Positions 7,017 to 60,277 of a stretch of DNA of 60,277 bases are shown in pieces (the stretch's first letter is position 1; every line of letters starts with the position of its first letter). The position numbers were made by a program, and so were the translations under genes. Under the pieces are notes generated by a model. The model was not told the origin of the DNA and ran no database searches. It was given only the letters and a program-made list of their open reading frames with translations. The stretch lies in IMG/VR virus record IMGVR_UViG_3300025128_008224, positions 1 to 60,277 of that record, one strand, 5' to 3'. The stretch is from a virus (Duplodnaviria; Caudoviricetes).

Positions 7017-7021
7017 TATCG

Positions 7022-16800: not shown

Positions 16801-19661
16801 TCTTCGCCAGGCATGTTGGATTTTGCCGGAGGCGGTTTCTTCTGGTATGCTGGGGAAGATGCTAGCAAAGTCTGTGCTTCGGATTCTGATAGGCCCAGTT
16901 GCGTGGCTGGTAAGAAGATACTATCAGCATATTTCATTATTATGTCAGAGATCTTATCTAAACCCTGTGGGTCGTCTAATAACTTTTCGAAAGCTGTGCG
17001 ACAAAGAGATTCCATGATCTCGTTCAGGGACATGTCGATGCTCAGGCAGCGTGCGATTTCAAGAGCCACAGTCTTGGGGTCTGCCCTCACAAGGAACTCT
17101 CTGTAAAGTTGGCTGATTCCCAAGATGTCGATCTTTTCCAACTTCGGGGGCAGTTGTCGCATGAACACATCACCAATGAAGTCCTGGCCTCGCATATCCT
17201 TGTATTGCATCATGATATCTGCAGTATCTCTTAGGATTGTGGACTCTTGCTTTTGTTTTTTTGTCATCGCGCCGGAAGGTTTATCTTGTGATTTGCCAGC
17301 TTTGGCTTTTTGTTCAACCTTCTTTGCAGACTCTTTTGACTTGTGTTGTTCGACAAACTTATCATATGAAGATTTCTCTGCTTTTGCCTGAGCCTTGTCT
17401 GCGTAGTGAGATTCAGGAGTAGTCGTCGCAGGGGGGACAGGGTAAAAATAGGGCACCGGGAAGGTGTAGGCGGCGGCCCATTCCAACCAAGAGTCGTTGG
17501 CAACTGCTGGCTCGCTCTTCAGCATGTTTGGAATGTGAAACAAAAATGAATTGGTAGTCGGACTATCAAAATATAATTCTTTGTAACACTCAAATCCAAT
17601 ATACAAGACTTTTGCACCCTCGCACACAGCGATGCTTTTAGAGGACTCTGCCGTTGCATTCTTAAGTTTCTCGTGTGAGTCTTTGCTTACTATGACTGCA
17701 TGAGTTAGCTTGTATTCATTCGTGAATCCAAGTTCAATGATGTAGTCCTTTGTATTGGTGCCAGTAGAAAATATGTCTGCCCCATATCCGTTTGCTTTGA
17801 CCAACATCTTAAGACCGTCAAATGTATCAACAACCCCCTCGTATTCAGCGCGATAATTTACTGGTCGTGATGCGATTGAGCCGGGAGGTGCCCACAGGGC
17901 TGTGAAGTTCTTTGAATTCTCGGCATCAGTTTGCTGGAATTCGAAGGGCACAAGCGCAAGATCGACTTGCTCCTGGAAATCCTTTGCCTCAAAAACCAAA
18001 ATCTTTGTGGCTGTAGTTTCAACACCTCCTTCTTCATTAACATAAATGTCGCACGGCGTCGTGTTGTCTACGGTAGAGGCATTCGGAAGAGAATCAAATA
18101 TCCTAGCTGGGACGCGGACGAGGACAAGCAGGTTGCCGCCCTCTCCCACTCCGTCTTCGGTCTCAACAGAAGGTCGGGGTTCTTGATACCAAGAACACCA
18201 CTTCAAGTTGCCCATGGAGATCGGGCCTTTGCCCACAGCGATAGATTGTTTAGAATCGTTGCTGGCTACCTTGACATTTTCCCATATTAAGGTCTTACCA
18301 TCAACACTTGGCTGAATTGCTATAAGTTTATGGCTAATCAGATATGAAGCTATGAGTTTCCTCTTTTCGTTCTTTGTTAACGTGCCGGCGTTGATCAAAA
18401 TATCTTTTAATGTCTTGTCTGTATAGCTCTTGTTATAATACTTCAACAAGTTGGCTACGCCGTCAACAGTAGCCTCCATTATTTGAGCTTCCAGAGACAC
18501 TTCACCAGCGGCAGGATTTAAAGGCGCCGCCTTGCTCCATTTTGTTCGAACGGTGGTCCAATATTCTGGGCCCGAATTGAAGCTGTTGTTTGCATATCCC
18601 AAACACGCCTTTCGGGTTCGCCAATCTTCAAAAGGTGTGACCTGGGGCGTGGTGTCGGATGTTACATCCGGGGCTGGAGCCCAACTAATAGAGTCGGCGA
18701 AGATGGGCGCCTTGAGGTTGGCCGCGGCGAGGCCTGCGTTGGCCTTGCTGTCAGCTTGATTTGCTGTTGCGTATTTTTCCTCAATAGGAGTTATGCTGTC
18801 TGCCGGGACGAGCCACCCGGGGAAGTTTGCATCGAAAGGGTTGATTGTTTTCGAATGAAGGGTAGCTTTTGTCGCGATTGCGTTCATTCCCGGGATTTCA
18901 ACTATATCGACATAACTGTATTTTTTAGAAAGGGCTATATCTGATTCGTGGCTTACGACCCAATAGTCAGCGCGGAGGAGTTTAAACGTTGTACCGGGTG
19001 GTAAAGGTTCATCGATTTTTGCCTTGTCCAATATACCAGCAAGGGCCGTGGGGGGGCCGGAAAACACTTGTGGCATTCGCGAAGGGTCATATAAAGTTAT
19101 GTTTGGGTGAGTTGCTGTACCCTTGTGCACATGTGTGCCAATTAAAATTTCTTCTCCAAGCTGCTGAGTGGCTGCGATTGTTTCCGAAGTTTCTGGTATC
19201 AAACCAATTTCTGCCATGACTGCTCGGAAGGCATCGATATCAACCATGAAATTGGCTTGAAACTTTGTTTTGTATACTTTTGTTGAAGTCACTTCGCCGG
19301 CGATGTTGGAGGTGTCCACGGTGGTGTAAAAATGCAAATAATCGTAACCCCAATCGCTGTTTCCAGTGCCTTCAGGGGTACAAGACCCAAACTCTTCTCT
19401 TTTGACAATAAGCTTTACTTGGTACTCCGGCTGCAAAAATGCGGGGGTTCCATCGGTGTGCAACTGCATGAACGACTTAGGTATTTCATCCCCCTGCATA
19501 ACAGCCGGATCTTTAACAAGTGTGCTGATGGCGACACCCCAGGCGGAGGCGAACGCCTCTTGTCTGTACGGCTGGAGATCATTTCCTTCGGGTTGATTAT
19601 CGGCAGGGTAGTATTTTTTTGAGTGCCCGGTGATTTCTTGTTGCCAAATGTTGTCAGCCAT
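10884..19661 (-). CDS. Giant hypothetical protein (2925 aa), probably virion/baseplate associated
   Basis: Uninterrupted 8.8-kb ORF between the spike-like genes and gp25. No catalytic motif recognised; the structural role is inferred from position only. Confidence 0.7.
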   Translation of the reverse strand: MADNIWQQEITGHSKKYYPADNQPEGNDLQPYRQEAFASAWGVAISTLVKDPAVMQGDEIPKSFMQLHTDGTPAFLQPEYQVKLIVKREEFGSCTPEGTGNSDWGYDYLHFYTTVDTSNIAGEVTSTKVYKTKFQANFMVDIDAFRAVMAEIGLIPETSETIAATQQLGEEILIGTHVHKGTATHPNITLYDPSRMPQVFSGPPTALAGILDKAKIDEPLPPGTTFKLLRADYWVVSHESDIALSKKYSYVDIVEIPGMNAIATKATLHSKTINPFDANFPGWLVPADSITPIEEKYATANQADSKANAGLAAANLKAPIFADSISWAPAPDVTSDTTPQVTPFEDWRTRKACLGYANNSFNSGPEYWTTVRTKWSKAAPLNPAAGEVSLEAQIMEATVDGVANLLKYYNKSYTDKTLKDILINAGTLTKNEKRKLIASYLISHKLIAIQPSVDGKTLIWENVKVASNDSKQSIAVGKGPISMGNLKWCSWYQEPRPSVETEDGVGEGGNLLVLVRVPARIFDSLPNASTVDNTTPCDIYVNEEGGVETTATKILVFEAKDFQEQVDLALVPFEFQQTDAENSKNFTALWAPPGSIASRPVNYRAEYEGVVDTFDGLKMLVKANGYGADIFSTGTNTKDYIIELGFTNEYKLTHAVIVSKDSHEKLKNATAESSKSIAVCEGAKVLYIGFECYKELYFDSPTTNSFLFHIPNMLKSEPAVANDSWLEWAAAYTFPVPYFYPVPPATTTPESHYADKAQAKAEKSSYDKFVEQHKSKESAKKVEQKAKAGKSQDKPSGAMTKKQKQESTILRDTADIMMQYKDMRGQDFIGDVFMRQLPPKLEKIDILGISQLYREFLVRADPKTVALEIARCLSIDMSLNEIMESLCRTAFEKLLDDPQGLDKISDIIMKYADSIFLPATQLGLSESEAQTLLASSPAYQKKPPPAKSNMPGEDQETWVPLLAYIDYISAESNAALDTNIDLSIEAKEAKFDLMAKEKALKQAQTYYKVNPTKANLVDLCTKSEARNTSLTQLQELNVDHFSYGSDYAKTAQILGTAPLAGPGSYVGLVKDKILWAIKNGETLICRDLIGTSADLLKTLDDVINAREGLVEAFIPDGIKRLPEEYTFEWPKLPTIDLLAAVKSLLYKTLKDAIGILLSQLVKFIFKELLKRCMGDKEAAEDFGNFDLNDLINSSPLAPSILEDSCGNLTQAEFSDLMRRLMDDLSLVLTNRELCALLRGDARKDFPELLPMLKRIVDTKYPQLSDCFSSPSDISDLFKTLGKLIPLDICEAVAAKPCDATPFSELCPPERFEEDLQAQLDRAKEDRINTLNQLADLLASDANTKMPSPICGIAPVGTTPEEMASRKTPSIPQLKMSDIPVYSHMHRKVMEQAFTNVIMCFNTDIKQFVPAINSLSSIQGAVQNTAMPGDKAMNRVLKAAPNEDAGDDLSGVQGSLEAQQAGAAKALRLALMDPGNFKWMPNVASSKIPAISDLLQAAGVTATNPASHFVLLYPGYGGAPKINYILPRNKLKEGSSGDPYIIYVTDANKLVYIDAGDGNNSLMTGHITLPSGDVYSDFVEDLGEFVNNASAQNTPGESYYDSHQAERFAELAISAWQEDINAPDITNPFWQEELKTFFAGTLFNLAHEKLIREFAARITQRGYSENYGYHLWTADETAGGKSTKPASMLLSAANYIPEGTTANDEIQYDFSEDVNTDHLKYITFDELDNMSYGETGAGYKKSFFHSPTLRKLDKALVPNISAEQVCNPKASAPRSLLGIDKIIEQSMEDYEKMACIPDSSGVPPVKRALINGVIRCFFRTIACEYALRNVFMLAKYPMDEVFKNNVVLKYFANAIIKDFYNQTRWNSKYPQFLRLFLDEVNRMFKDLEATIPKGQPLLHPLTKEPIVVKTEKQKLAYLMAEQIPSMSDTLKEVISTSLGGYTFSQNNIEKDFMNAIPVVQIARIVDGDVDTGGTYITENRFYQPYALDKEAGGTFNNRLTELGRQYFTDPEALENDNDLGYLEMERANHGGFILEKYIYIDPEGVDGEENGKLVNSSIYGDTEKWAPEPAALIPVNAGALFGFDDDNESSVVLGEEYPLVGWGKASLVGKCNDYKVRERMEEFLGKILENGSFPPNMEFSALGFGPIKFGYRLSYVLPSLENTASPAFEQAQKNLDALLTGDPGLSALTPADLDIQGANSATRDSAERAAFLSKAYKLTERQVVLGATANPNNPTMVQIGEKETLKRTYYVLPLIDVEKEADLLPSMTIEQARDNFPAWSMSNTPSWSSGTGPDGPNGLKKLMRLDPRYMKLVGQDPQNAIFNANRVASLLSLYTSTSMNNIPALGTLFDATKEALVMLFFTALRDNADFTAEDPYETACAQGVPPFPATALSGFPFNLMALFYSTPLKMIAGIVALIDPGYKKYKDNGSDFNFTPFGKHPYAFPYTPMGWVLVFLDFSWYDDMEKMFDSDKKSSEACEDNPDNVVGGTAASDLLALPEEVGGSSPSELDIASVLADIEEDPFNATFKYGIDPALPWLTGDGTAANSDGTDFLIEKDGAPWPPEEYGCEEILLLLAFYNATAKDGKEALEEIPYGSGTATAYDQLVTIVSALTTKALQKGCTDLLHDSAHLIYNAPSAEKARDEFKTYLDLGEGYSADDIYQTMLASNDVFGTLQTSNWDTALVESLSNTCKAVYGGHKFWVWNSAAMANDGITQGQVQKAPQSMNFKENGAMVMDFVNHPTESGQNLKLAAKMRAVQLGYNSSTYKDWAKWFFEAEGGTSAPSNSPDLWAPLDTSDPFADAPWLVTNSPAGFTPGPGRYVGSAMFGMPVWTPSWATSLYFASVTMEAYLKSPPGFDAIGIYVDDGTNHNSAMQEFKDWLYMHALTTDIGEDLPKDAKAAYVEFLEKAHGDLAQYINNLVEYAADN

Positions 19662-51089: not shown

Positions 51090-52244
51090 TTAGCGGATAG
51101 TCAAGAACTTTTTCAACTCTTCTAGTCTTTTCTGAGGAGGTTCGAGACCTCCGACAACTGTGTAAGCTACGAGTTTGTCTTTACCTGAGTCTTCGTAAAT
51201 TCCTCTATGGATGATTGCACCACCTGTCAAGGCAGCGAGGGTATCAAATCCATACTCAATGGAGTCCATGAGGCCGGGGATCTCTTCGTACTGCTTTGTT
51301 CCGCCGACAACGATGCTGGCAGCACCAGTAGCTGTAGTTAGATCAAAGCCACTAGCCAAAAGAGTCTTTCCTAGGTTTCTCTTGAGCGCAGATGAAATTG
51401 AAGTTTCGTCTTCGATGTTCTTTACAGATGTAGCTCCGAAGATCATACACCCCTTTGATTTCATTATAGTATTATAATCGGCTGGATCGAAGGCAGTGTA
51501 GTTTGAGTTCTTTGTCGATAAAAGATTGAAGACGTGAAAGAGGCCGGCGACTGTGCTGTTCAGAGTGGGCCAAAACTGCTTGACAGTAAGCTGTGGATAT
51601 AGCTTTCTGATTTTGTCGTTATCGACGATGATGAGGGGGGCATAATCCCCATTCTCAGCAGCTACACATAATTCTGTGATTCTATTATAGGCATTTTTGG
51701 CGACAACCGGAGATGCGACTTCGCCAGTTGTGGGAAGTGAAGCAACAACGCCCACTCGCTCGCTAGCGTCATCTTTACCAACATAAGTGAAATAGCGCTT
51801 TGCTGTGTCAATTAACGTCTGTACAGAGCCGCCTCCGGTTCCGCCGGCTACTCCAACACAAACAAGGATTCTATCAATGTTCTCTCCAAAGATTTGACGC
51901 ATCTTGTTGAATATTTCAGGATTCTGTGCTTCATATGCTTGTCTAGCTCTCTCTTGATTTTTGCCTGCTCCATCCTCGCCAAAGTGATTTACGAAGAACT
52001 TATGTTCTTCTGGCAATTCAAGTAGAGCCAAATCGGACTTTGCTGTGTTAAATGCAATTGTTTTCTTATATCCCAAGTCGTAGAAGGCCTTTGCAATTCT
52101 ACCTCCGCCCTGGCCTGAACCGATAATGGCATAAGTAAGTGCTCCACCGCTTTCATCCTCAACGGAATCCTTCTTTTCGTTATCAATGGCATCCGGATCG
52201 AAATCCTCAATATCCAAAGTTGGTATGTTTAGGTCAATTGACAT
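51090..52244 (-). CDS. Tubulin/FtsZ-family GTPase (PhuZ/TubZ-like)
   Basis: IIGSGQGGGRIA (T1), FNTA..DL, GAGKN (T3), VAGGTGGG (T4 signature variant), VDND, FDPADY (T7-like). AGGAG RBS. Confidence 0.9.
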   Translation of the reverse strand: MSIDLNIPTLDIEDFDPDAIDNEKKDSVEDESGGALTYAIIGSGQGGGRIAKAFYDLGYKKTIAFNTAKSDLALLELPEEHKFFVNHFGEDGAGKNQERARQAYEAQNPEIFNKMRQIFGENIDRILVCVGVAGGTGGGSVQTLIDTAKRYFTYVGKDDASERVGVVASLPTTGEVASPVVAKNAYNRITELCVAAENGDYAPLIIVDNDKIRKLYPQLTVKQFWPTLNSTVAGLFHVFNLLSTKNSNYTAFDPADYNTIMKSKGCMIFGATSVKNIEDETSISSALKRNLGKTLLASGFDLTTATGAASIVVGGTKQYEEIPGLMDSIEYGFDTLAALTGGAIIHRGIYEDSGKDKLVAYTVVGGLEPPQKRLEELKKFLTIR

Positions 52245-53107: not shown

Positions 53108-53743
53108 CTAGTAAATGATTTCATCAACGAGACCATATTTAAGGCAAGTTTCTGCATCCCACCATAGGTCGTGTTTTAGAATCTCATTGAGTTTTTTAGC
53201 CGGGATTTTTGTACGCTCTTCGTAGATTTCTCTAATGCGCTTCATTAGAATCTCGCTATTCTTCATATCATCTTTTAACTCTTCGTATTTCCCCCACATA
53301 CCAGAAGAAAGCTGGTGGATTAACATATAAGCGTTTTTATTGATTTTTCTGTGGGCGCCCACGACGCTCATGATTGTCGCAGCAGAAGCAGCACAGCCAT
53401 CGATGATCGTGGTGATTGGAACCTTTGACTGAAGAATATAATCAACAGAAGAAAACCCTGCGAAAACGCTCCCCCCATATGAATTGATATGAAGGTTGAT
53501 CGGAATGCAGGGTTCAATGTTTAACGAATTTGAAATATTTGAATATTTGTTGGCAGCTTCTATAATCTTCTTGTTCAGAGTAAGATTGTTGGTCCTCTTG
53601 ACTTCTGCATAAAAGTAGATATCGTTGTTATAAACTTCTATTCTATCCTTTGAGTCGCTCCCTGCGTTGGCTTCATAATCATCATCGTCTTTCTTTTTAT
53701 CTTTTTTCTTGGCTTTCGAATACCAGATATCTATATCACTCAT
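53108..53743 (-). CDS. clpP: ClpP-like (S14) protease
   Basis: LHINSYGGSV, AASAAT (Ser), MLIHQ (His), HDLWW (Asp), YGLVDEI. Confidence 0.88.
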   Translation of the reverse strand: MSDIDIWYSKAKKKDKKKDDDDYEANAGSDSKDRIEVYNNDIYFYAEVKRTNNLTLNKKIIEAANKYSNISNSLNIEPCIPINLHINSYGGSVFAGFSSVDYILQSKVPITTIIDGCAASAATIMSVVGAHRKINKNAYMLIHQLSSGMWGKYEELKDDMKNSEILMKRIREIYEERTKIPAKKLNEILKHDLWWDAETCLKYGLVDEIIY

Positions 53744-54179
53744 CTATACTTCCTCGACTATCTTCCACTAATGTGCTGGAACTCTGGATTTTGATTCCTC
53801 CAACGCCCCAGACCAATTCAATATTTGTTTCTTCGGCTGTATATAATTCTGGTATATTATCCAGATTACGATCACCTCCGTTTCCAAATGCTATCTTTTC
53901 ATTTGGCCATTCGCTTCGGGCCCAATTCAAAAGTCCGCATGCGCTTCCGTCGCTATCATCAAAGTCAGTAGCTATGGATACCCCAGCTAACGACTCAACC
54001 ATTTCTTTGCGCTCTTCAAATGGCATGAAAATATAACCTTTCTTTCTCATCAGCCAGGCATCAGAATTGACGCCAATTACCAGCTTTTTCCCCAGGGTTG
54101 CCCCGTTGCGTATCATTCTAGCATGACCCACATGAAGAGGGTCGAATCCTCCACTTAAAAGCACTATATCATAAGACAT
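53736..54179 (-). CDS. Cytidylyltransferase-like nucleotidyltransferase (TagD/RfaE-II/RibL family)
   Basis: SGGFDPLHVGH (HxGH), GVNSD, RKKG, NGGDR, KIQSSS. Confidence 0.88.
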   Translation of the reverse strand: MSYDIVLLSGGFDPLHVGHARMIRNGATLGKKLVIGVNSDAWLMRKKGYIFMPFEERKEMVESLAGVSIATDFDDSDGSACGLLNWARSEWPNEKIAFGNGGDRNLDNIPELYTAEETNIELVWGVGGIKIQSSSTLVEDSRGSIDE

Positions 54180-54188
54180 GACTTACCC

Positions 54189-54314
54189 CTACAACCATGG
54201 AAGAAACCAGTCTGCTACGGAATAAATTGTAATATACAGCACTGTTTCTTTTCTAGTTGAACTTTGATTCCATTCGTAATTTGTTAACTTGTTCCAAGTA
54301 TCTTTTAATGACAT
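54189..54314 (-). CDS. Small hypothetical protein (41 aa), not in the ORF track
   Basis: MSLKDTWNKLTNYEWNQSSTRKETVLYITIYSVADWFLPWL with a GAGG RBS; fills the gap before the cytidylyltransferase. Confidence 0.5.
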   Translation of the reverse strand: MSLKDTWNKLTNYEWNQSSTRKETVLYITIYSVADWFLPWL

Positions 54315-54375
54315 TTTATCCTCATCTCTCTATAGACTATAGTCTACGGAGGTGAAACTTTTAAGCTTTATTTTA

Positions 54376-54582
54376 TCATTGATTGGTTTCTAATTTTTTG
54401 ATTCTTTTCGCCAAGTTCTGGATTTTCTTTTTCAATTGGTTAACCGGCTCGGAAGAATTACACTGAGCTATTTCTGACTCAAGAGAATCCAGTCTCAACT
54501 GAGTTGTGTAGTAAAAACCGCCTAGAGTTGTGGCGAATATTAAAAGCGTGATAAGCAACTTTATGTCTATTTTGAAATCCAT
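54376..54582 (-). CDS. Small membrane-anchored coiled-coil protein (68 aa)
   Basis: Hydrophobic LLITLLIFATTLGGFYY followed by a heptad-like segment. Confidence 0.65.
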   Translation of the reverse strand: MDFKIDIKLLITLLIFATTLGGFYYTTQLRLDSLESEIAQCNSSEPVNQLKKKIQNLAKRIKKLETNQ

Positions 54583-54592
54583 AATATATCTC

Positions 54593-55948
54593 TTAGTTTA
54601 TAAACTGAGCCCATCTCCTGTATGTTTCATTCAGGGCGGGTTCGGTGGGTATTGGAAGCTTTTCAAGCTCTCTTGCCTTTTGTAATTCTTGGTATGCTTT
54701 CTGATGTTCTCGTCCAAACTTATAATCTGTACCATGACTTGGAAGCATTGCAGCCGCTCCGCCCTGGTCGGCAAACTGCACGTCAAGATCGCCATAGAAC
54801 TTATCAAAGTCAAAATCAGGTAGCTCTTCTATGTCATGTACAAACCTTCCGGATCTGGTTTTGATCGGTGCAGGTGTCGGGAGAGGCTCCTCTGGTCTCT
54901 CAAAGCGTGGGGAGGCGATCTCTGGTTCGCTCGGCCTTCGCGTTGCTATCTCAGGCCTGTTGCTGGGCTCAGGCGGAGCTTGTGGTGGCGCCGGCTTTGG
55001 CAACTCTATTTCCGGCTTTGGTGCGGTAGCCACAGGAGAGGGTGTGTCCGTAGTAGGCGGAGTGGGCGCAGGGGGTTTATCTGGTACTTTTGTTTGCAAA
55101 GGTGTTTGAAATTGTTCCGGCTTAATATTGTCCTTGATGGCGCCCAGGGTCAAATCTTGTATTTTTGATCTCATTTTGCCGAGATCTCTGTCGGACTGGT
55201 CGGTATACAGTGACAAAACATATTTGTCGTTGATTACAACAGAATAGTTCAAAGTGCCTTTGTAATAGCCACCCTTACCATACATTGATTTAATAGAATC
55301 TTTACCATATCCTGCTTTTTCCAACTGCTTATTCAAGCGATCTTTCAACCCTTTAGCGCCGGTTCCACCTTGCCTCTTCTGGATATAAGACAAGACTTCA
55401 CTGGCCTCGTTGTGATATTCTGAATCTGGATCATTCTTCATGTTGACAAGAAGCGACATGAACTTGTTATAACCTTGTGGAGTTTGCTGATTGTATCTAC
55501 TTCCCCAGTGCACCCCTCCGATGGAATCTCCTAAGCCAAGCTTATTTAACACTTCTTTTGCCTGGTCTCTGCTAACTCCATATTGCTTGCTGTATTTTTT
55601 GTAATATCCTTGATTTTTGGGGTCTTTTCCTGGAACACTGGACATATCGCTCAAGGCTCTATTAACCCTGTTCGAACTTGAGGAGCCTCCGGCATAGCTT
55701 ATAAGCTTATCCAACTCTTCCGGGGACAGTCGACGAATCTTTTCACCTGTTCTATTGTGAAGGGCGCCTTCTTTTGCTAGTACAAGATTGATGAAAGCCA
55801 GAACCGGCTTGTTCATCGATGCGCCGTACATGGATTTGTTCTGGTCGATGCCAGCGATTGGATCTTTACCAATCTCTCCAATAGAATAGCCATGCTTAAG
55901 CTTGGCTTCGTTTAAAAACTCTTCCCAATTTTCTAATAACAGTTTCAT
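54593..55948 (-). CDS. MKL-leader protein with serine beta-lactamase/PBP-like domain and Pro-rich linker
   Basis: Likely start MKLLLENWEEFLNE at 55948 (ATGA overlap). Motifs ASMNK (SxxK), SSN (SxN) and GKGG (KTG-like) in the correct order. P/T/E-rich segment; C-terminal LNETYRRWAQFIN. Confidence 0.65.
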   Translation of the reverse strand: MKLLLENWEEFLNEAKLKHGYSIGEIGKDPIAGIDQNKSMYGASMNKPVLAFINLVLAKEGALHNRTGEKIRRLSPEELDKLISYAGGSSSSNRVNRALSDMSSVPGKDPKNQGYYKKYSKQYGVSRDQAKEVLNKLGLGDSIGGVHWGSRYNQQTPQGYNKFMSLLVNMKNDPDSEYHNEASEVLSYIQKRQGGTGAKGLKDRLNKQLEKAGYGKDSIKSMYGKGGYYKGTLNYSVVINDKYVLSLYTDQSDRDLGKMRSKIQDLTLGAIKDNIKPEQFQTPLQTKVPDKPPAPTPPTTDTPSPVATAPKPEIELPKPAPPQAPPEPSNRPEIATRRPSEPEIASPRFERPEEPLPTPAPIKTRSGRFVHDIEELPDFDFDKFYGDLDVQFADQGGAAAMLPSHGTDYKFGREHQKAYQELQKARELEKLPIPTEPALNETYRRWAQFIN

Positions 55949-57621
55949 TTTATAAGTTGAGCCCATCTTTTATACGATTCTTGTAAAGCCAATTCGCCTT
56001 GTTTTTCGATTTCTTCTGGATCTTGCCAATATTTAGCCTCGTGACCTTCCTGTGCTACCAAACCAACATCTATTAGAGCCTTTGATATTGCAGAATATCC
56101 TTTGGTACCGAAACTTTCATCAATACGAAGCATTTCATTGAGAAATACTCTAAGCTCATCTAGATCTTCAATATGGCTATAATCAACAACACCCTTGAAA
56201 TAGGGGCCTCCGCCGCGAACATCGTCAGGAACAGACTCTAGATCATATATATTCATTCCGGTGGGGGCGATTGCGTCTCGAATGATGGCGTTGATTTGTT
56301 TGAGTGTTTCCGGTTCTTCCCATGGCACAGTCCATTCCATGGTTTTTCTATGTCTTGCAAGGATTATGGGCAAATTAATCCAAATATAAGAGTTGAGTTC
56401 GATGTGACTTTCACCAGTTTCGTCGGGAAACTTCAATTCGAATTCCAAGTGTTCTACCTGATCTTGATAGCGCTCCATCATTTCTATGTAAGGTTCTTTG
56501 CCAATTGAAGGGTTTTCTTGTGCATCTTCTTGCGCTACGTCGATTATATACCTTAATGTACTCATGGCCCTTGTTTCGATGGCCTCTACACTTTCTTCAC
56601 GCTGTTGGTCAATTGTATCGTAATCTTCTGGTTCTGAGTTTATTTCAATGTCGGTATTATAATCAGCACCCAACTCTTTTACGGCTGCAGCGAATTCCAT
56701 TACGTCTTCTTTTGAAACGTCTTCACGACTTACCATATGGCCGCCCGTAATATGCTGATACCAAAGGAGGGCACCTTGAGTTACTTTTTGATTGAGAAGG
56801 TTCTGTACTATTGCTTGAGTTGTTTCATCAAAATCCATCGGCTCATCCCAAGCATTCCATGCGCGATTGAATGCTCCACCTGGCTCCATTTCAAGGGCAA
56901 TCTTCTTATATTTGTTATCATTGGAAAGGTTGGCTAGAAACACAAAATAGAACGTTTTGCCTTCTGCAGAGTACTCATCAAAATAGTTTGAAGATTCAGA
57001 TGCTGAGATACACCATTTTGTTCCTTTGCCATAATAACAAGAAGCTTCAGTGGTCTCTGGTCTGATCATAATATAGTCATCGTTTTCGTCGACTATTCTG
57101 GAACCTTCTTTTGCTTTTATTTTCTCTTGTTGTTTTCTGTCCTTCGCTGACTCAACAGATGCCTGCTTTGTAACTGCTGCGTTGACAGTTGAATTTAGTT
57201 CACCAAAATCTTTAATTCTATTAATGTCTCGTTGTTCTGGTTCAACATACTTCTGGAGAAGATGAAATGTTTCCAACTGTCCTGCAATATTGCTGGCGAT
57301 GCCCCAAGGAGATATGAGCTTGTCTATTTTTTCTGGCTCAATCTCTTCATCTTCTGGCCACTGCTTTCCCCAAAAAGGTTCTTTGCCTCTTTTAATGTGA
57401 CCATCAATAGTATTTTTCAAAATCCTAGCTGCGCCCATGAGATATTTTTGGTTTTCAGAAGGATCTCTTTGAACAAGAACATCAAGAAGACTTTCGCCAT
57501 CCAATTCTTCTCTTTTCTTAGCTAATTCAGGGAACTTTCTTTCAGCGTCTTGAATGCGGCCTTCAATGAGAAGTTGAGATTCTGTTAAGTATTTCCGCCA
57601 ATTTTCAAGTATGAGTTTCAT
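55945..57621 (-). CDS. MKL-leader hypothetical protein (558 aa)
   Basis: MKLILENWRKYLTE; central ASCYYGKGTKWCIS motif; C-terminal LQESYKRWAQLIK. Confidence 0.75.
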   Translation of the reverse strand: MKLILENWRKYLTESQLLIEGRIQDAERKFPELAKKREELDGESLLDVLVQRDPSENQKYLMGAARILKNTIDGHIKRGKEPFWGKQWPEDEEIEPEKIDKLISPWGIASNIAGQLETFHLLQKYVEPEQRDINRIKDFGELNSTVNAAVTKQASVESAKDRKQQEKIKAKEGSRIVDENDDYIMIRPETTEASCYYGKGTKWCISASESSNYFDEYSAEGKTFYFVFLANLSNDNKYKKIALEMEPGGAFNRAWNAWDEPMDFDETTQAIVQNLLNQKVTQGALLWYQHITGGHMVSREDVSKEDVMEFAAAVKELGADYNTDIEINSEPEDYDTIDQQREESVEAIETRAMSTLRYIIDVAQEDAQENPSIGKEPYIEMMERYQDQVEHLEFELKFPDETGESHIELNSYIWINLPIILARHRKTMEWTVPWEEPETLKQINAIIRDAIAPTGMNIYDLESVPDDVRGGGPYFKGVVDYSHIEDLDELRVFLNEMLRIDESFGTKGYSAISKALIDVGLVAQEGHEAKYWQDPEEIEKQGELALQESYKRWAQLIK

Positions 57622-57642
57622 TCTGTTCCTCTGCTATGGATT

Positions 57643-58860
57643 CTAGGATTCAAGTGACCAATCTCCCTGAGAGTTTGTGATCATCCAGAACCCAGACCCG
57701 GACCCAACGATGGTGATAAAGTGTCCAATGTCCGAACTTGTTCCAAGAATTAAGTCTTTGTCTACTCTCCCCACACCATTGCTCCCCAGAACTACCGTGC
57801 TTCCATCTTTGTCAAGCAGATTGCCCATGAACTTTTCGCCGGATGCTGGGTTAATTTGGAACCCCTGACCGGGTGTCCCTGCATACCAGAACGTATACGT
57901 TATGCCTGGTGCAGTGGAGGGCAGATTCACAACATGGTTAGATGGAGTAGCATTACCGGACTGGGGGATTAATATACCTGACTGTGATGTTGTAAGGGTT
58001 GCCCCGTTTGAAAGCGCGCTCCCGACGTACTGCTTGTGCCCGAGCATTCCGGTTGCCATGAGGCCTCCAGATGGGGTGATGGTCAGATAACCATTGTCAT
58101 CAACAGCAAAGGTCGCGGCGTCGGATCCGTTGTAGGACAATTTTAATTGGGTTCCGGCATTAAATACCTCCAATTGCGTATCCGGATCGCCAACGCCGAT
58201 TCCAACGTTGCCGTCCTGCTCTATGACCATCCTTATATCACTATTGGTTTTGAATGTGAGGTTGTCGTTAGTATAATTATTGTATGCAATCCACTTTCTT
58301 GTGCCGTTCTCGTAAAGTTCAAGACCGGGGTGGCTGTCCACGTCGCCGTCAATTTTAATTCTGGGGTCATTTCCAACAAGCTTGATATCGCCATCAACAT
58401 GTAGCTCTACATCGGGAGATCCTACGCCGTTGATCCCCACCCTGCCTGTGGATGCGTCTACCTTAAATGCGGGGTTGCCTTCGTTGGAACCGTTACCCTT
58501 AACAATAAAGTCAATATTGTTCGAACCATCGTTAAAAGTAAGCTCATGTGGAGCGGAGTTTTTTTTGTCTAAGTTAATGAATGATAGGTTGCCTGCCTTT
58601 AAAGTTACCGCATTGTCTCCGAACCTCATCCACGTATCGGCATCACCGTTGTGATAGATGTATTGATCGACCCCTATGTCTCCGGCTACGTCGAGAGTAT
58701 AATCTGGGCTCGTGGTGCCAATGCCCACCTTGTTTTGGTCTGCATCAACAAACAAGGTGTTGCTATCTAGATTGACGTCATCATCGCCGCTGCCTAAATC
58801 AATACTCCCGTCCACGTTTAGCGAACCCGTGATGCTAGCATTGCTTCCATATTCAGACAT
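57643..58860 (-). CDS. Fibre/spike-like protein with VGIG beta-repeats
   Basis: Three repeats KVGIGTTSPDYTLDVAG / RVGINGVGSPDVELHVDG / NVGIGVGDPDTQLEV, typical of trimeric phage fibres. GGAG lies 10 nt before the ATG at 58860. Confidence 0.7.
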   Translation of the reverse strand: MSEYGSNASITGSLNVDGSIDLGSGDDDVNLDSNTLFVDADQNKVGIGTTSPDYTLDVAGDIGVDQYIYHNGDADTWMRFGDNAVTLKAGNLSFINLDKKNSAPHELTFNDGSNNIDFIVKGNGSNEGNPAFKVDASTGRVGINGVGSPDVELHVDGDIKLVGNDPRIKIDGDVDSHPGLELYENGTRKWIAYNNYTNDNLTFKTNSDIRMVIEQDGNVGIGVGDPDTQLEVFNAGTQLKLSYNGSDAATFAVDDNGYLTITPSGGLMATGMLGHKQYVGSALSNGATLTTSQSGILIPQSGNATPSNHVVNLPSTAPGITYTFWYAGTPGQGFQINPASGEKFMGNLLDKDGSTVVLGSNGVGRVDKDLILGTSSDIGHFITIVGSGSGFWMITNSQGDWSLES

Positions 58861-58930
58861 TATTACCATTCTCCGCGGGGAAAGAATATTCTTTCATATA
58901 CTCTCGCCAATTTTCAAGTAGGAGTTTCAT
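58853..58930 (-). CDS. 25-aa leader-only micro-ORF MKLLLENWREYMKEYSFPAENGNNV (possibly a remnant)
   Basis: Its ATG overlaps the TGA of 58927..59298 and its end overlaps the fibre start. The first 14 residues are identical to the upstream gene. Confidence 0.45.
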   Translation of the reverse strand: MKLLLENWREYMKEYSFPAENGNNV

Positions 58931-59300
58931 ATTAATTCTTGTGCCTTTTCTTCTGCATACTCAAATTCCTCATCGCTGTATGTGCCAAATACCTTTTCTA
59001 CTTCTTCTGGAGATGTTTCACGATAGGTGTTGCTTTCACCACTTATATTGTCAAGCACGTTTTCCAATGGCATCCTGCCGCGGCAGTCAATCGCTTCTTT
59101 TGTTTGAGAATCATAAGCAAAAACATGATGCATGTCTCCTCGTTCATCAACGATGCCATACATGGGAAAATCAGAAATTCCACTAATGGCTTGTGCTAGC
59201 AACGAGCAGTCGCGCCTCATAAAATTAATATATTCGGAGGGATGGTGTTCCTCTTCCTCTTTCATATACTCTCGCCAATTTTCAAGTAGGAGTTTCATAT
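58890..59300. repeat. Exact 43-bp direct repeat (58890-58932 and 59258-59300)
   Basis: Both copies read tctttcatatactctcgccaattttcaagtaggagtttcatat on the plus strand. A 26-bp one-mismatch copy is at 57596-57621 and a more diverged copy ends at 55948. Confidence 0.95.
58927..59298 (-). CDS. MKL-leader protein with putative Cys-His-Asp (papain/transglutaminase-like) domain, 123 aa
   Basis: True start MKLLLENWREYMKE at 59298; the track extension to 59442 runs into the tmRNA. Motifs DCSLLAQA, HHVFAY, IDCRG. Confidence 0.6.
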   Translation of the reverse strand: MKLLLENWREYMKEEEEHHPSEYINFMRRDCSLLAQAISGISDFPMYGIVDERGDMHHVFAYDSQTKEAIDCRGRMPLENVLDNISGESNTYRETSPEEVEKVFGTYSDEEFEYAEEKAQELI

Positions 59301-59337
59301 ATGGTAAGTAGTCTAAAAGAAAGGATAAGAAAAAAAA

Positions 59338-59683
59338 TGGTGGAGGCGTCGGGAGTCGAACCCGAGTCCTAAATGCTTCCAAAAATTCGTCATTCACAAG
59401 GTTAGGTTGTTGTATATTGAAATCTGGCCACAACCAGTCCAAATTCCTGGCTAGTACTTATAGCACTAGGCCCAGCCACCACTCACCTTATTAAGGTAGT
59501 GAGAAACCTAAAAATGCCATTTTGGTTAACAAGGGATGGCTCCCCCGGATTACGCAGCTAGTGCGTATTCAGAAAAAGTGTCAGTATTGGCACTTATCAA
59601 GTTCAGCGTTTTTACAGAGACCGTCGCTGCCCTCTGCCCTGCACGAATAATCTTCGACACCCAGTCGATACCAATTCGCCCCC
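59338..59683 (-). ncRNA. ssrA: tmRNA (one-piece), tag peptide ANTDTFSEYALAA
   Basis: 5' GGGGGCG pairs with 3' CGCCTCC-A-CCA (G3-U alanine identity); T-arm CTCGGG-TTCGACT-CCCGA; resume codon GCC after ATAAGT; tag ORF at 59550-59591 ends YALAA-stop. Confidence 0.97.
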
Positions 59684-59711
59684 ATATTTTAAAAGATCAA
59701 AAGAAAATGAA

Positions 59712-59864
59712 GGCAGGGGTTGGACGAGTTTCTCGATCATCGTCATACTAGCCTCTCTTCCACTGCTTACGTAGTAAGCCCTTCGTTAGAGGCATAGAAG
59801 GTTTCGCGCAACTCTTATTGGCTACACTTCCTGGCCGTTGTTAAATATCTTTGCAACCCCTGCC
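59712..59864 (-). ncRNA. Candidate structured non-coding RNA of unknown class (~153 nt)
   Basis: Perfect 11-bp closing stem GGCAGGGGTTG/CAACCCCTGCC. Inner helices GCCTCT/AGAGGC, GCTTAC/GTAAGC and GACGA/TCGTC. Lies between a strong promoter and the tmRNA. Confidence 0.5.
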
Positions 59865-59934
59865 ATTGTTATGTATTAAATCTGTCACGAATACATAGGA
59901 TGCCTCCGTTGTTAATTTTACCTCACTTAATATA

Positions 59935-59963
59935 ACTATATCGCTGCAGCTTCAAAATGTCAA
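59935..59963 (-). promoter_or_regulatory. Sigma70-type promoter driving the structured element and tmRNA
   Basis: TTGACA (59958-59963), 17-bp spacer, TATAGT (59935-59940). Confidence 0.85.
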
Positions 59964-60277
59964 GTTTTATCTTCGAAATAAGTGTCGGTGCCGTATTTTT
60001 TTTCTAATGCATGTAATCTAGGCCGGTCAAGACCTAAAAACCTGGCAGCTTCACCTTTTGTTCTGGTTATGGAAAGGGCTGTTTTGAGAAGAGCCTCTTT
60101 AACAATATTGTTGATTCCTTTCCACAGAGGAAATCCATATAGCTTATTGTTAATGGACTTGGCGGCTAACTCTAATTTAAGCGCAATTATCTCCTCTAGG
60201 GAAAGTGAGTTAAGAAGAACTTCAAATTCTTCTGTAATATCTTTATCATTTCTTAATTTTTTTGATATACTGTAGTT
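59960..60277 (-). CDS. Fis-like helix-turn-helix protein, 5' end outside the window
   Basis: Open frame from the right edge: ...IVKEALLKTALSITRTKGEAARFLGLDRPRLHALEKKYG...DKT-stop, resembling the Fis/NtrC HTH. Not in the ORF track. Confidence 0.7.
   Translation of the reverse strand, partial: NYSISKKLRNDKDITEEFEVLLNSLSLEEIIALKLELAAKSINNKLYGFPLWKGINNIVKEALLKTALSITRTKGEAARFLGLDRPRLHALEKKYGTDTYFEDKT

Follow-up and report, generated by a model that had tools for sequence, protein, structure and literature searches.

How does a small gene come to lie between two identical stretches of coding DNA, each of which carries a start codon and the first codons of a protein? The question arises in a 60,277-nt viral stretch (the window, meaning the whole of the DNA analyzed), which represents about one third of a T4-like marine phage genome (estimated 33% complete) and is syntenic with two complete leader-bearing genomes at 45-70% amino-acid identity. 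An earlier note had described a 123-aa gene bracketed by identical 43-bp sequences covering the ATG and leader codons, and a repeat search of the window bore this out: two direct copies, 100% identical and 368 nt apart from start to start, belong to a repeat family with two further, diverged copies at 57581-57623 (77%) and 55908-55950 (74%). Within the first of these, a single base separates the 26-nt core at 57596-57621 from its exact counterparts, matching the note. Read on the minus strand, each exact copy consists of AT, ATG, 13 codons and 2 nt, and encodes the leader MKLLLENWREYMKE. The 14-residue leader stands on four starts within the window, and a degenerate leader pattern gave four matches there versus none in 100 dinucleotide shuffles.

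The note had seen a start codon and leader codons in both exact copies, but only the upstream one heads a gene, that of 123 aa; the reading frame that begins in the downstream one has only 25 codons (MKLLLENWREYMKEYSFPAENGNNV), an orphan stub whose nature had been overlooked. The stop TGA of the 123-aa gene overlaps the ATG that follows it (ATGA), and the stub in turn ends in a stop that overlaps the probable start of the next, 405/408-aa gene (ATG 58860, ATGTCTGA), which is read in a different frame. This probable start (MSEYGSNASITG) comes from comparison with contig L285, while the ORF listing gives 58869. We consider it probable that the leader serves twice, its DNA as a crossover site and its peptide as a tag like the capsid-targeting sequence (CTS) of phage T4, and this is the explanation that best accounts for the locus.

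Evolutionarily, the match between the two exact copies takes in codons 9-14, where leaders otherwise vary freely, and this identity points to recent copying or conversion between them in this lineage; the event may have been an insertion, an unequal crossover or a conversion alike. One crossover with an unrelated resident leader would leave codons 9-14 non-identical, so that an extra step (conversion or internal duplication) would be needed. Among the matches listed, 102 within-contig leader pairs share exact runs with a median of 11 nt; in eight of them the run is at least 30 nt long, and the 43 nt seen here are the maximum. Between contigs, a run of 40 nt or more occurs in 35 of 16,734 pairs.

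Table 1. Features of the leader gene array and its surroundings in the window, from upstream to downstream.
Feature	Position	Strand	Remarks
Phage-encoded tmRNA	59338..59683	-	3' end 59338; conserved landmark directly upstream of the array
CTACTTA, variant of CTA[AT]TTA	59305..59311	-	Candidate late promoter (inferred); 6 nt ahead of the copy A start codon
Leader copy A, exact 43-bp repeat	59258..59300	-	Start of the 123-aa gene; ATG at 59298
123-aa cargo gene, body of the mobile cassette	58927..59298	-	Leader MKLLLENWREYMKE; ATG 59298, stop TGA 58927-58929
Leader copy B, second exact 43-bp repeat	58890..58932	-	Opens the orphan stub
Orphan leader stub, 25 codons and stop	58853..58930	-	MKLLLENWREYMKEYSFPAENGNNV; stop 58853-58855
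Tail-fibre-like gene without leader, 405/408 aa	57643..58860	-	Match to phrog_9942, tail fiber
558-aa leader gene	55945..57621	-	MKLILENWRKYLTE; distant relatives in jumbo phages
451-aa leader gene	54593..55948	-	MKLLLENWEEFLNE; start at 55948

A leader shared by many unrelated proteins

Judged by sequence comparison, the leader is placed on many unrelated accessory proteins by an uncultured lineage of marine T4-like myoviruses. In IMG/VR contigs it stands at no fewer than 163 distinct gene starts, with the consensus M-K-L-[LI]-[LF]-E-N-W-R-x-[YF]-[LIVM]-x-E. The search pattern left positions 9-14 free, and among the matches listed these positions are conserved as R9 (132/166), [YF]11 (147/166), [LIVM]12 (152/166) and E14 (130/166), with conservation collapsing beyond position 14. 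The extended motif is present in 117 of the 163 viral copies among the matches listed; in 596 Gb of cellular genomes the pattern matched 97 times, and 7 of these matches have the extended motif. A second leader type differs in sequence, is of the same length and also ends in I12-x-E14 ([LI]-x-E), and the two types coexist in one genome. Orphan stubs directly before leaderless genes recur at four other loci (L024, L050, L091 and L118), and some of the cargo consists of nucleotide-metabolism-type enzymes (NUDIX, HAD, kinase). The leader pattern was found in none of the four cultured T4-like aquatic phages tested, and a literature search returned no paper describing this leader.

Putative function of the leader peptide

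Functionally, we infer by analogy that the leader most likely works like the T4 CTS, given its [LIVM]-x-E end and the gp21-type protease found in relatives. In T4, a 10-residue N-terminal CTS loads internal proteins, and gp21 is described as cutting after L/I-X-E (PMC9026906). Peptidase_S77 (gp21-type) was detected in all five complete leader-bearing genomes; leader-bearing genes flank gp21, inside the head gene cluster, in two of them, and a conserved protein of ~147 aa encoded after gp21 has a type-2-like N-terminus in all five. The proteins flanking gp21 received no Pfam or PHROGs assignment. As a predicted amphipathic helix, the leader peptide would take its cargo into the prohead core, where a gp21-type prohead protease would cut it after Glu-14, and with the leader cut off there the cargo would be delivered with the DNA.

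Three observations count against the CTS part of this reading: the enzyme cargo (NUDIX, HAD, kinase) is unlike classic internal proteins, the amphipathicity of the leader exceeds that of shuffles by only a small margin, and the gp21 gene is absent from the window fragment, with no Peptidase_S77 in its 48 ORFs at an estimated completeness of 33%. The same kind of metabolic-type cargo would suit an address tag for a target other than the capsid, such as another phage assembly, a membrane, or the ClpP-like protease that is encoded nearby in the window and also in genome G005. A TubZ-type tubulin encoded in the window and the predicted amphipathic helix itself could likewise be accommodated by such a tag, which we regard as unlikely though not negligible. 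Against it stand the fit of the [LIVM]-x-E end to gp21 specificity, the occurrence of gp21 in every complete leader-bearing genome, the position of leader genes within the head gene cluster together with the type-2-like N-terminus after gp21, and the candidate late-promoter motif (CTA[AT]TTA, enriched upstream of genes in this phage group), which structural genes share.

Exchange at the leader DNA

From a genomic perspective, comparison of sequences supports exchange at the DNA level. The 123-aa gene was found in three unrelated contexts, with homology that runs from the leader ATG to ~25 nt into the next leader. Its nucleotide identity is 96.5% in L174 and 93.2% in L175, with unrelated flanks on both sides, whereas for PhoH the figures in these genomes are 66.4% and 62.5%, respectively (62-73% at the amino-acid level). 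Cassettes are also gained and lost between near-identical contigs: L025 and L040 have one leader, L071 carries one cassette more and L048 three more, and L045 and L124 differ by a 395-bp cassette. These leader-bounded indel alleles come from two independent contig sets, have flanks of ~0.3 to 2 kb that are 91-99% identical, and show flanking alignments that overlap by 28-49 nt inside the leader. Among the matches listed, internal homology ends fall within -15 to +60 of a leader ATG in 141 of 230 cases, versus 4.6% of positions, and a homology breakpoint lies at 51 of 213 leader starts versus 11 of 370 other ORF starts, an enrichment of ~8x.

The relatives thus show gain, loss and swap at the leader, so that the recombination reading of the earlier note is supported by comparison. 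The check that it had named, variable gene content between leader copies in relatives, returned 0, 1 or 3 extra cassettes besides the 395-bp indel, and its proposal that leader DNA acts as a crossover for whole tagged genes, in frame, draws support from the three-context cassette, the leader-bounded indels and the breakpoints. That the exchange is integrase-free also agrees with the data: the tyrosine integrase domain PF00589 was found in none of five records (all 14 control genomes matched), no integrase domain was detected in the 48 window ORFs, and a RecA/UvsX-type recombinase is encoded in all four complete relatives. The tmRNA neighborhood, which the note had included in its picture, looks incidental, as there is no tmRNA sequence in the repeat and none of the other cassette copies lies beside a tmRNA.

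An empty site was sought via relatives of the tail-fibre-like gene (38% identity in viral contigs, mostly 65-77% in metagenome contigs), and none of them has the same junction; L288 holds a 155-residue partial match at 92% without the upstream flank, and the sequence upstream of the gene start in L285 is not homologous to the stub. It could be argued that the event was purely local, with the stub a remnant of a duplication or cargo deletion that plays no part in exchange, and with the similarity elsewhere due to common descent. The identity of stub codons 9-14 to the leader of the 123-aa gene itself fits such an internal copy, and a moving intermediate was not seen in the short contigs, but common descent accords poorly with a cassette 93-96% identical between unrelated flanks while PhoH is 62-66% identical, with leader-bounded indels in two independent sets of near-identical contigs, and with breakpoints enriched at leaders, which together make a purely local origin improbable.

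Assembly support

Read-level material was available as short Logan contigs from 24 public runs, four of which were compared with the window; these contigs break at the leader. Three contigs of run X1 reproduce the junctions 58519-58919, 58906-59022 and 59271-60202 with 0 mismatches. The assembly check proposed in the earlier note came out in part: the three junctions are reproduced, but no contig bridges a whole repeat copy, so that the linkage between the copies depends on the original assembly. Neither a joint skipping 368 bp nor a circle joint was present among the contigs of the four runs, which are too short to bridge the repeat, and joints that skip 322-344 or go back 410 are ambiguous, with sides that cover 24-35 nt of shared leader sequence. 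All comparators are metagenome assemblies, and some joins at shared leader sequence could therefore be chimeric.

These properties invite the suspicion that the arrangement is an assembly artefact, in which k-mers of the shared leader led to the 123-aa gene of a co-occurring phage being placed wrongly between tmRNA and tail-fibre gene; the perfect match of the two copies would then reflect a single collapsed graph node. Leader DNA is common to very many genomes in the same samples, and the leader bins reach depths of ~70-130 (X1, X2) and 1,300-7,300 (X3, X5), versus roughly 0-55 in most neighboring bins. The contigs break at the leader, with none of those listed bridging a whole copy, and a variant allele of the 123-aa gene, commoner than that of the window, is present in the same runs. 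The zero-mismatch X1 contigs nevertheless cover both sides of the downstream copy, 58519-58919 spanning the stub-to-tail-fibre junction including the variable codons 9-14 and 58906-59022 spanning the passage from the 3' end of the cargo to the leader, at depths of 7.9 and 5.2 that are similar to the flanks (6-9). Moreover, the 43-bp repeat is shorter than the usual read length, and the leader-cargo-leader layout recurs in complete genomes with terminal repeats and in L174 and L175. We consequently regard an artefact as quite improbable, whether for the splice itself or for the identity of the copies.

Codon use and expression

Leader codons are more uniform than the protein demands, with CGA making up 55% of Arg codons in the leader versus 13% in cargo, and CTA plus CTC 46% of Leu codons versus 19%. 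That selection on expression, acting on a translation-initiation region or a regulator site, keeps leader DNA identical, with recombination as a by-product and a peptide without a targeting role, would suit this uniformity, the unstructured RNA of the leader regions (z-scores -0.98, 0.32, 2.29 and 0.02, as in efficient start regions) and the stubs that end at or overlap the next start codon (an overlap that suggests translational coupling), but is very unlikely given residues that stay fixed despite synonymous variation (six codons for Leu3; L/I/V/M at position 12 through many codons), the sharp end of conservation at Glu-14, the second leader with a different sequence and the same length and [LI]-x-E, and the lack of any Rfam family over the leader copies in the region searched (54000-60277). 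In that region Rfam returned tmRNA models only, one of them a weak hit below threshold (E 0.083) that extends from the tmRNA 3' end to 59196.

Proposed mechanism and implications

In the preferred reading, that of leader DNA as a crossover site for tagged genes, a leader core of ~25 nt acts, as sequence comparison shows, as a portable homology patch, within which the general recombination system of the phage crosses over without a site-specific recombinase. Through crossovers within this core, units of leader plus cargo are gained, lost or exchanged in frame, inside one array as well as from one diverged phage to another. The 123-aa gene is such a cassette, with its own leader upstream and, downstream, an orphan leader stub abutting the leaderless tail-fibre-like gene. 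A wider proposal, which taken as a whole we hold tentatively and as somewhat short of probable, is that the leader is of dual use throughout, with a peptide that serves as a capsid address and is clipped, and with DNA that serves as the crossover of an 'integron without an integrase', giving diverged T4-like phages access to a very large, ocean-wide pool of in-frame cargo; the end stubs would act both as docking sites and as coupled mini-ORFs that drive untagged genes.

If the preferred reading is right, the sequence coding for the tag doubles as a recombination site, and any gene landing behind the tag would thereby be at once expressed, addressed and portable. Abundant marine phages would thus have a simple route for trading a fast-changing, probably injected protein kit, and the ideas developed for T4 internal proteins and for promoter-early stem-loop (PeSL) cassettes would extend to uncultured phages of one lineage, whose cargo pool is much larger. 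The leader would also provide a rule by which candidate effectors delivered by virions could be recognized from sequence in metagenomes, as well as a natural design, tag and homology in one, by which proteins could be loaded into T4-type capsids.

Comparison with known systems

Leader-bounded cassette exchange is a variation on a scheme already described for internal-protein (IP) genes in phage T4. The IP genes of T-even phages cluster in highly variable loci of T4-type genomes (PMC9026906, PMC3012670, PMC2839356), conserved repeats at their boundaries have been proposed to shuffle genes (PMC2839356, citing Repoila 1994), and T4-type recombination is described as needing patches of <50 bp (PMC2839356). 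As in the T-even IP/CTS system so described, small proteins unrelated to one another carry a short N-terminal leader, which closes with the L/I-x-E motif cut by gp21. The leader here has 14 residues versus 10 in the T4 CTS described, is unrelated-looking in sequence and belongs to an uncultured marine lineage. Its cargo pool is far larger than that of the T-even IPs (at least 163 distinct starts) and includes enzymes, the crossover zone is a coding leader core rather than the early-promoter and stem-loop elements described for T-even phages (PMC2839356), and packaging and cleavage are predicted.

Promoter-repeat cassettes with mini-circles are also known in T4-type phages (PMC2839356). Like the PeSL cassettes of RB49 and phi1 as described there, the units here are single ORFs flanked by a conserved repeat that are inserted, deleted and replaced between close relatives, with no integrase and with short homology and phage recombination thought sufficient (PMC2839356). 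In contrast to the intergenic promoter and stem-loop of the PeSLs, the repeat here is coding and in frame, covering the first 14 codons, and no RNA structure stands out at the leader by the folding z-scores given above. Mini-circles have been shown for PeSLs (PMC2839356), whereas the cassettes here are known from assembled contigs.

The arrays resemble integron cassettes as well, in being composed of single promoterless genes exchanged as units at a repeated boundary, although the boundary here is part of a protein. An integron was rejected on the results for PF00589 (0/5 records) and on RNA folding, which revealed no attC-like structured site. Variable genes directly downstream of a tmRNA gene recall the islands at ssrA (the tmRNA 3' end), except that the tmRNA here belongs to the phage itself. 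As an explanation of the locus, a tmRNA-targeted island was set aside: the repeat begins 38 nt past the 3' end of the tmRNA (59338) and codes for the leader rather than duplicating that end, and an integrase was not found.

Proteins encoded in the array

The 123-aa protein had no match in Pfam or PHROGs, and neither it nor a HAD-like cargo had a tblastn match in cultured phages. A Foldseek search of its predicted fold against the PDB gave no match at E <= 0.001; in a wide search with VIA the best hit reached Z 4.6, no more than a lead, and resemblance of the modeled fold to papain-like Cys-His-Asp enzymes is a weak lead. In the AF2 model, residues 2-12 of the leader form a helix of their own, of low confidence, which a linker follows and which lies outside the predicted fold. 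The 451-aa and 558-aa proteins share a C-terminal motif, for which a search elsewhere gave no further occurrence, and a distant PA5oct relative of the 558-aa protein carries a structural-protein annotation, the one hint that leader cargo may be packaged in the head.

Exact leader repeats around the 123-aa gene

All window genes lie on the minus strand, and a repeat search returned two copies of 43 nt (copies A and B), 100% identical and spaced 368 nt apart, together with two diverged copies of the leader, the 14-residue N-terminal tag. Each exact copy, read on the minus strand, comprises AT, an ATG and 13 more codons, translating to MKLLLENWREYMKE; repeat search and reading thus agree with the earlier note that the 123-aa gene sits between identical copies holding start and leader codons. 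The frame of copy B is +1 with respect to the 408-aa ORF that follows, and this ORF has a match in a PHROGs tail-fibre family. Because the relative of this ORF in the comparison locus L285 begins MSEYGD..., the window tail-fibre-like gene most likely starts downstream of copy B without a leader, its probable start overlapped by the stop of the copy B stub (ATGTCTGA). The diverged copies stand at the starts of the 558-aa and 451-aa genes, and a degenerate leader pattern has four matches in the window versus none in 100 shuffles. The products of these two genes have not only the leader but also a C-terminal motif in common, ..E[ST]Y[KR]RWAQ[LF]I[KN]-stop, with no other occurrence among the fetched loci; a distant relative of the 558-aa protein in PA5oct is annotated as a structural protein.

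That the repeat is an assembly artefact, a reading favoured by Logan contigs that end inside the leader, is very improbable, as run X1 yielded contigs with zero mismatches from stub to tail-fibre gene (58519-58919), from cargo end to leader (58906-59022) and from leader to tmRNA (59271-60202), at depths of 5-9, similar to those of the flanks. Summed depth at the leader is ~70-130 in runs X1 and X2 and up to thousands in X3 and X5, and both this rise and the contig breaks arise because many genomes share the leader. Runs X2 and X3 (the runs with window sequence come from marine metagenomes) also contain variant alleles of the 123-aa gene flanked by leader sequence on either side, the X3 variant contig carrying 349 further nt unlike the window. 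Run X1 could be the sample from which the window came. In these contigs, too broken at the leader to reveal one, no 368-bp deletion joint occurred.

Coordinates of features in the window, relative genomes (G) and comparison loci (L)
Feature	Record	Position	Strand	Remark
Leader copy A	window	59258-59300	-	ATG 59298; start of 123-aa gene, whose stop overlaps the copy B ATG as ATGA
Leader copy B	window	58890-58932	-	ATG 58930; ORF of 25 codons only
Tail-fibre-like gene	window	ATG 58860		most likely start
Diverged leader copies	window	57581-57623; 55908-55950		
123-aa gene, alignment to L174	window	59298 to 58904		96%
123-aa gene, alignment to L175	window	59302 to 58905		93%
Own tmRNA of T4-like phages	window	59338-59683		
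	G005	100984-101366		
	G004	63661-64094		
C-terminal motif	window	54593-54628; 55945-55980		451-aa and 558-aa proteins
TubZ-type tubulin, ClpP-type protease	window	51090-52244; 53108-53743		
Giant ORFs	window	1-7016; 10884-19661		
PhoH in two frames	G006	6569-7896		
Orphan stubs of 10-14 codons	L024	4238		
	L050	2001		
	L091	301	-	
	L118	301		
Cut leader-NUDIX gene	L124	~300-400	-	
Two-form cargo family	L048	2796-3143		compared with L134, L142
Second-leader loci	L283	482-2315		
	L284	505-1836		
	L292	1-1308; 2554-3099		
	G005	123298; 142927-144047		
	G004	64816-65053; 91336-94518		
gp21-adjacent leader genes	L147	808-1419	-	
	L148	533-1081	+	
CTA[AT]TTA sites	window	59305-59311		copy A, as CTACTTA
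	window	upstream of 10850 and 53088		
	G005, G004			many

Evidence for cassette exchange at the leader DNA

The 123-aa gene is present in two further viral contigs, L174 and L175, with homology running from the ATG to ~25 nt inside the next leader and flanks unalignable on both sides. Its context is tmRNA, gene, stub plus tail-fibre gene in the window; thioredoxin-like gene, gene, 246-aa leader gene in L174; and 302-aa leader gene, gene, 238-aa leader kinase in L175. Nucleotide identity of the coding sequence to L174 and L175 is 96.5% and 93.2%, respectively, compared with 66.4% and 62.5% for PhoH of the same genomes (62-73% amino acid), and because it is far more alike than the conserved PhoH, this small accessory gene has moved recently.

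Cassettes (leader plus cargo gene) also differ among near-identical contigs: L025 and L040 have a single leader ahead of a HAD-like gene, L071 has one additional cassette (its two leaders 424 nt apart), L048 has three (1,142 nt from leader 1 to leader 4), and L142 has yet another arrangement, with flanks 91-99% identical over ~2 kb, or over ~0.3-0.7 kb where the short L142 locus was compared. The two flanking alignments overlap inside the leader by 28-45 nt in this set. In L040, the single leader is preceded by sequence matching the upstream flank of leader 1 and followed by sequence matching that after the last leader, the two meeting within a 26-nt core that they share. A 395-bp cassette indel of like kind separates L045 from L124, with ~0.33-kb flanks 98-99% identical. 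In L124, an A-run shorter by 1 nt cuts a leader-NUDIX gene to 32 codons, a likely frameshift.

Alignments between loci of different contigs (length ≥150 nt, identity ≥80%) had 230 internal ends, of which 141 fell within -15 to +60 of a leader ATG, a zone holding 4.6% of positions, with peaks right at the ATG and between +25 and +34; breakpoints were borne by 51 of 213 leader starts versus 11 of 370 starts of other ORFs from these loci, counts that include redundant contigs and overlapping loci and whose events are not independent. Neither the window nor any of four complete relatives has a PF00589 integrase, no integrase was found by Pfam or PHROGs among 48 window ORFs, and all four relatives encode a RecA/UvsX-type gene. 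Two points of the earlier note, that recombination between leader copies would insert or excise whole cargo genes and that the array is integrase-free, are supported by these comparisons.

Short leader ORFs ending at or overlapping the start of a leaderless gene recur in L024 (array as in L067), L050, L091 and L118, and 8 of 163 leader copies among the matches listed are shorter than 40 codons. Such orphan stubs may be array ends or scars; they would also supply downstream homology for more exchange, and could perhaps act by translational coupling as well. In the window, stub codons 9-14 are those of the 123-aa gene's own leader and belong to that gene family, and the downstream leader in both L174 and L175 diverges from +25 onward, which argues that copies A and B were probably copied or converted one from the other in this lineage, consistent with the recent event that had been proposed from their identity. 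They could have arisen by integration of a circle into an identical leader, by unequal crossover or by conversion.

The Discussion of PMC2839356 describes patches of <50 bp as needed for recombination in T4-type phages, insertion and excision of their promoter-early stem-loop (PeSL) promoter-repeat cassettes without integrase, and PeSL-analogous repeats on both sides of variable internal-protein loci in T-even phages. A leader on variable cargo and repeat-mediated, integrase-free shuffling are already known in T4-type phages; the variant here has the coding tag itself as its crossover zone and occurs in an uncultured marine lineage with a very large pool of cargo, two leader types side by side and orphan stubs. 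No description of the leader turned up in the open-access main texts searched.

Genomic setting

Pfam and PHROGs searches of 48 window ORFs identified gp6- and gp25-type baseplate proteins, a gp55-like late sigma factor, PIN-PhoH, sugar-modification genes, a TubZ-type tubulin and a ClpP-type protease. The window is the whole 'genome' record, a single contig of 33% estimated completeness, and its baseplate-to-PhoH genes are syntenic with two IMG/VR genomes (186-191 kb, rated 100% complete) at 45-70% amino-acid identity. These two are among the five complete leader-carrying genomes, all of which encode a T4 gp21-type prohead protease (nearest cultured gp21, 53% identity); since the relative G005 has a ClpP-like gene in addition to gp21, ClpP is an accessory gene and not the head protease. 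The leader array starts 38 nt past the 3' end of the tmRNA; this tmRNA encodes the tag ANTDTFSEYALAA, and that of G005 encodes ANDNVEFDYAMAA. The tmRNA and its preceding gene are kept in G004 and G005, the tmRNA-to-PhoH stretch of both is wholly different from that of the window, and the window array genes have no homologue in either at E ≤ 1e-5; this region is hyperplastic, with the tmRNA as a landmark rather than a site of recombination. The tubulin and ClpP-type genes lie within the variable stretch between PhoH and the leader array. Giant ORFs flank the gp25/gp6 baseplate genes on both sides: one, of >2,338 aa, runs off the contig end and carries a Laminin_G_3 domain; the other, of 2,925 aa, has no family and matches G005 only over a short, weakly similar stretch. 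In G006, PhoH lies in two frames, likely because of a frameshift.

Conservation and cargo of the leader

A pattern scan of IMG/VR found at least 146 stretches with the leader. Several positions left free in the search pattern are conserved among the 166 distinct copies formed by the matches listed plus the window (R9 in 132, [YF]11 in 147, [LIVM]12 in 152, E14 in 130), and past position 14 conservation disappears. Under one fixed criterion, this extended motif was present in 117 of 163 viral copies among the matches listed and in 7 of 97 pattern matches in cellular genomes, most others there being short or internal frames, and the leader pattern occurred in none of four cultured T4-like aquatic phages. 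Judged from these sequences, the leader is a widespread phage-specific tag. In cellular-genome bins, the full leader occurs in MAG contigs only, L252 (NHHP01000006.1, 116 kb), L202/L203, L245/L250 and L271, with the labels Pelagibacter sp., Woesearchaeota and Isosphaeraceae; these are probably phage contigs binned with cells, and as a pointer to the host the Pelagibacter label is weak.

As further evidence for exchange at the DNA level, codon choice in the leader is narrower than the peptide calls for: CGA accounts for 55% of Arg codons in the leader versus 13% in cargo. Exact runs of at least 30 nt occur in 8 of 102 within-contig leader pairs versus 2.1% between contigs, the longest seen being the window's 43 nt. 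Leader genes are clustered in complete genomes, a relaxed motif finding eight in G005 (six in 113.4-118.7 kb) and five in G004. The cargo is varied. Of 94 complete ORFs that have a leader and reach 70 aa, 79 remained after 15 near-duplicates were removed by eye, and one from L174 brought the set to 80 proteins; 11 had Pfam matches at E ≤ 1e-4 (NUDIX, three; HAD_SAK_1, two; DUF7178, two; PGDYG; RNase_T; weak Pkinase; Zeta_toxin/AAA_33), and 69 had none at that threshold. One cargo family occurs in two forms, MKLLLENWR-DTSWE.. and MKLLLENWRKYITEDWRDTSWE..., which differ by 8 codons, in frame, between two WR motifs, suggesting slippage or recombination inside the leader.

Possible leader function and a second leader type

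Functionally, the nearest known system is the T4 capsid targeting sequence (CTS). PMC9026906 and PMC10229621 describe it as 10 N-terminal residues that load internal proteins into the scaffolding core and are removed by gp21 after L/I-X-E, residues near the N-terminus directing targeting and positions 8 and 10 processing; T4 internal proteins are presented in PMC3012670 as a diverse set with the CTS as sole common part. The present leader follows the same logic but has 14 residues instead of 10, and, like the T4 cut motif, has [LIVM]12-x-E14, where conservation ends sharply. For the 123-aa protein, AF2 (mean pLDDT 84.5) places residues 2-12 in a separate low-confidence helix, with pLDDT <50 at residues 12-14 and a confident fold from near residue 30; the amphipathic moment of the leader is modestly higher than in shuffles. 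By analogy, we infer that the leader would work like the T4 CTS, in capsid loading with a putative gp21 cut. Further hints are a second leader type, the gene neighbourhood of gp21 and a candidate promoter motif (below), and the structural annotation of the PA5oct relative of the 558-aa protein.

A second leader type, MKLTKSKLKQIIKEEL-like and also with I12-x-E14 ([LI]12-x-E14), heads arrays of 5-6 small genes; these arrays often stand immediately before relatives of the tail-fibre-like gene. Single genomes carry it together with the ENWR-type (type 1) leader, with four genes of the second type in G005, seven in G004 and none in the window. Leader-bearing genes adjoin gp21 in two of five genomes, a type-2 gene after it in G005 and a type-1 variant before it in G001, and a conserved ~147-aa protein after gp21 (L147-L151) has the type-2-like N-terminus MKKxELKxxLKPxIKECIKE in all five; neither the leader-bearing gp21 neighbours nor the ~147-aa protein matched a Pfam or PHROG family. 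The motif CTA[AT]TTA (often ACTA[AT]TTA) is enriched 12-15-fold within 45 nt upstream of ORFs, among them baseplate genes, others that look structural and those that open leader arrays, and makes a candidate late promoter for these phages.

The 123-aa cargo protein

A wide structural search with the model of the 123-aa protein returned mostly papain-like or transglutaminase-like cysteine hydrolases, but with Z ≤ 4.6, and its Atlas match was to YunG-like phage proteins; we treat both likenesses as leads only. The family comprises 25 metagenome clusters. In a 24-row alignment omitting P0003 and P0006, 18 N-termini are the leader or a close variant, three start at Met-12, one starts within the leader and two are of another kind. 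The invariant residues include C31 at a helix start, D71 and, on a strand, H58, next to the nearly invariant H57.
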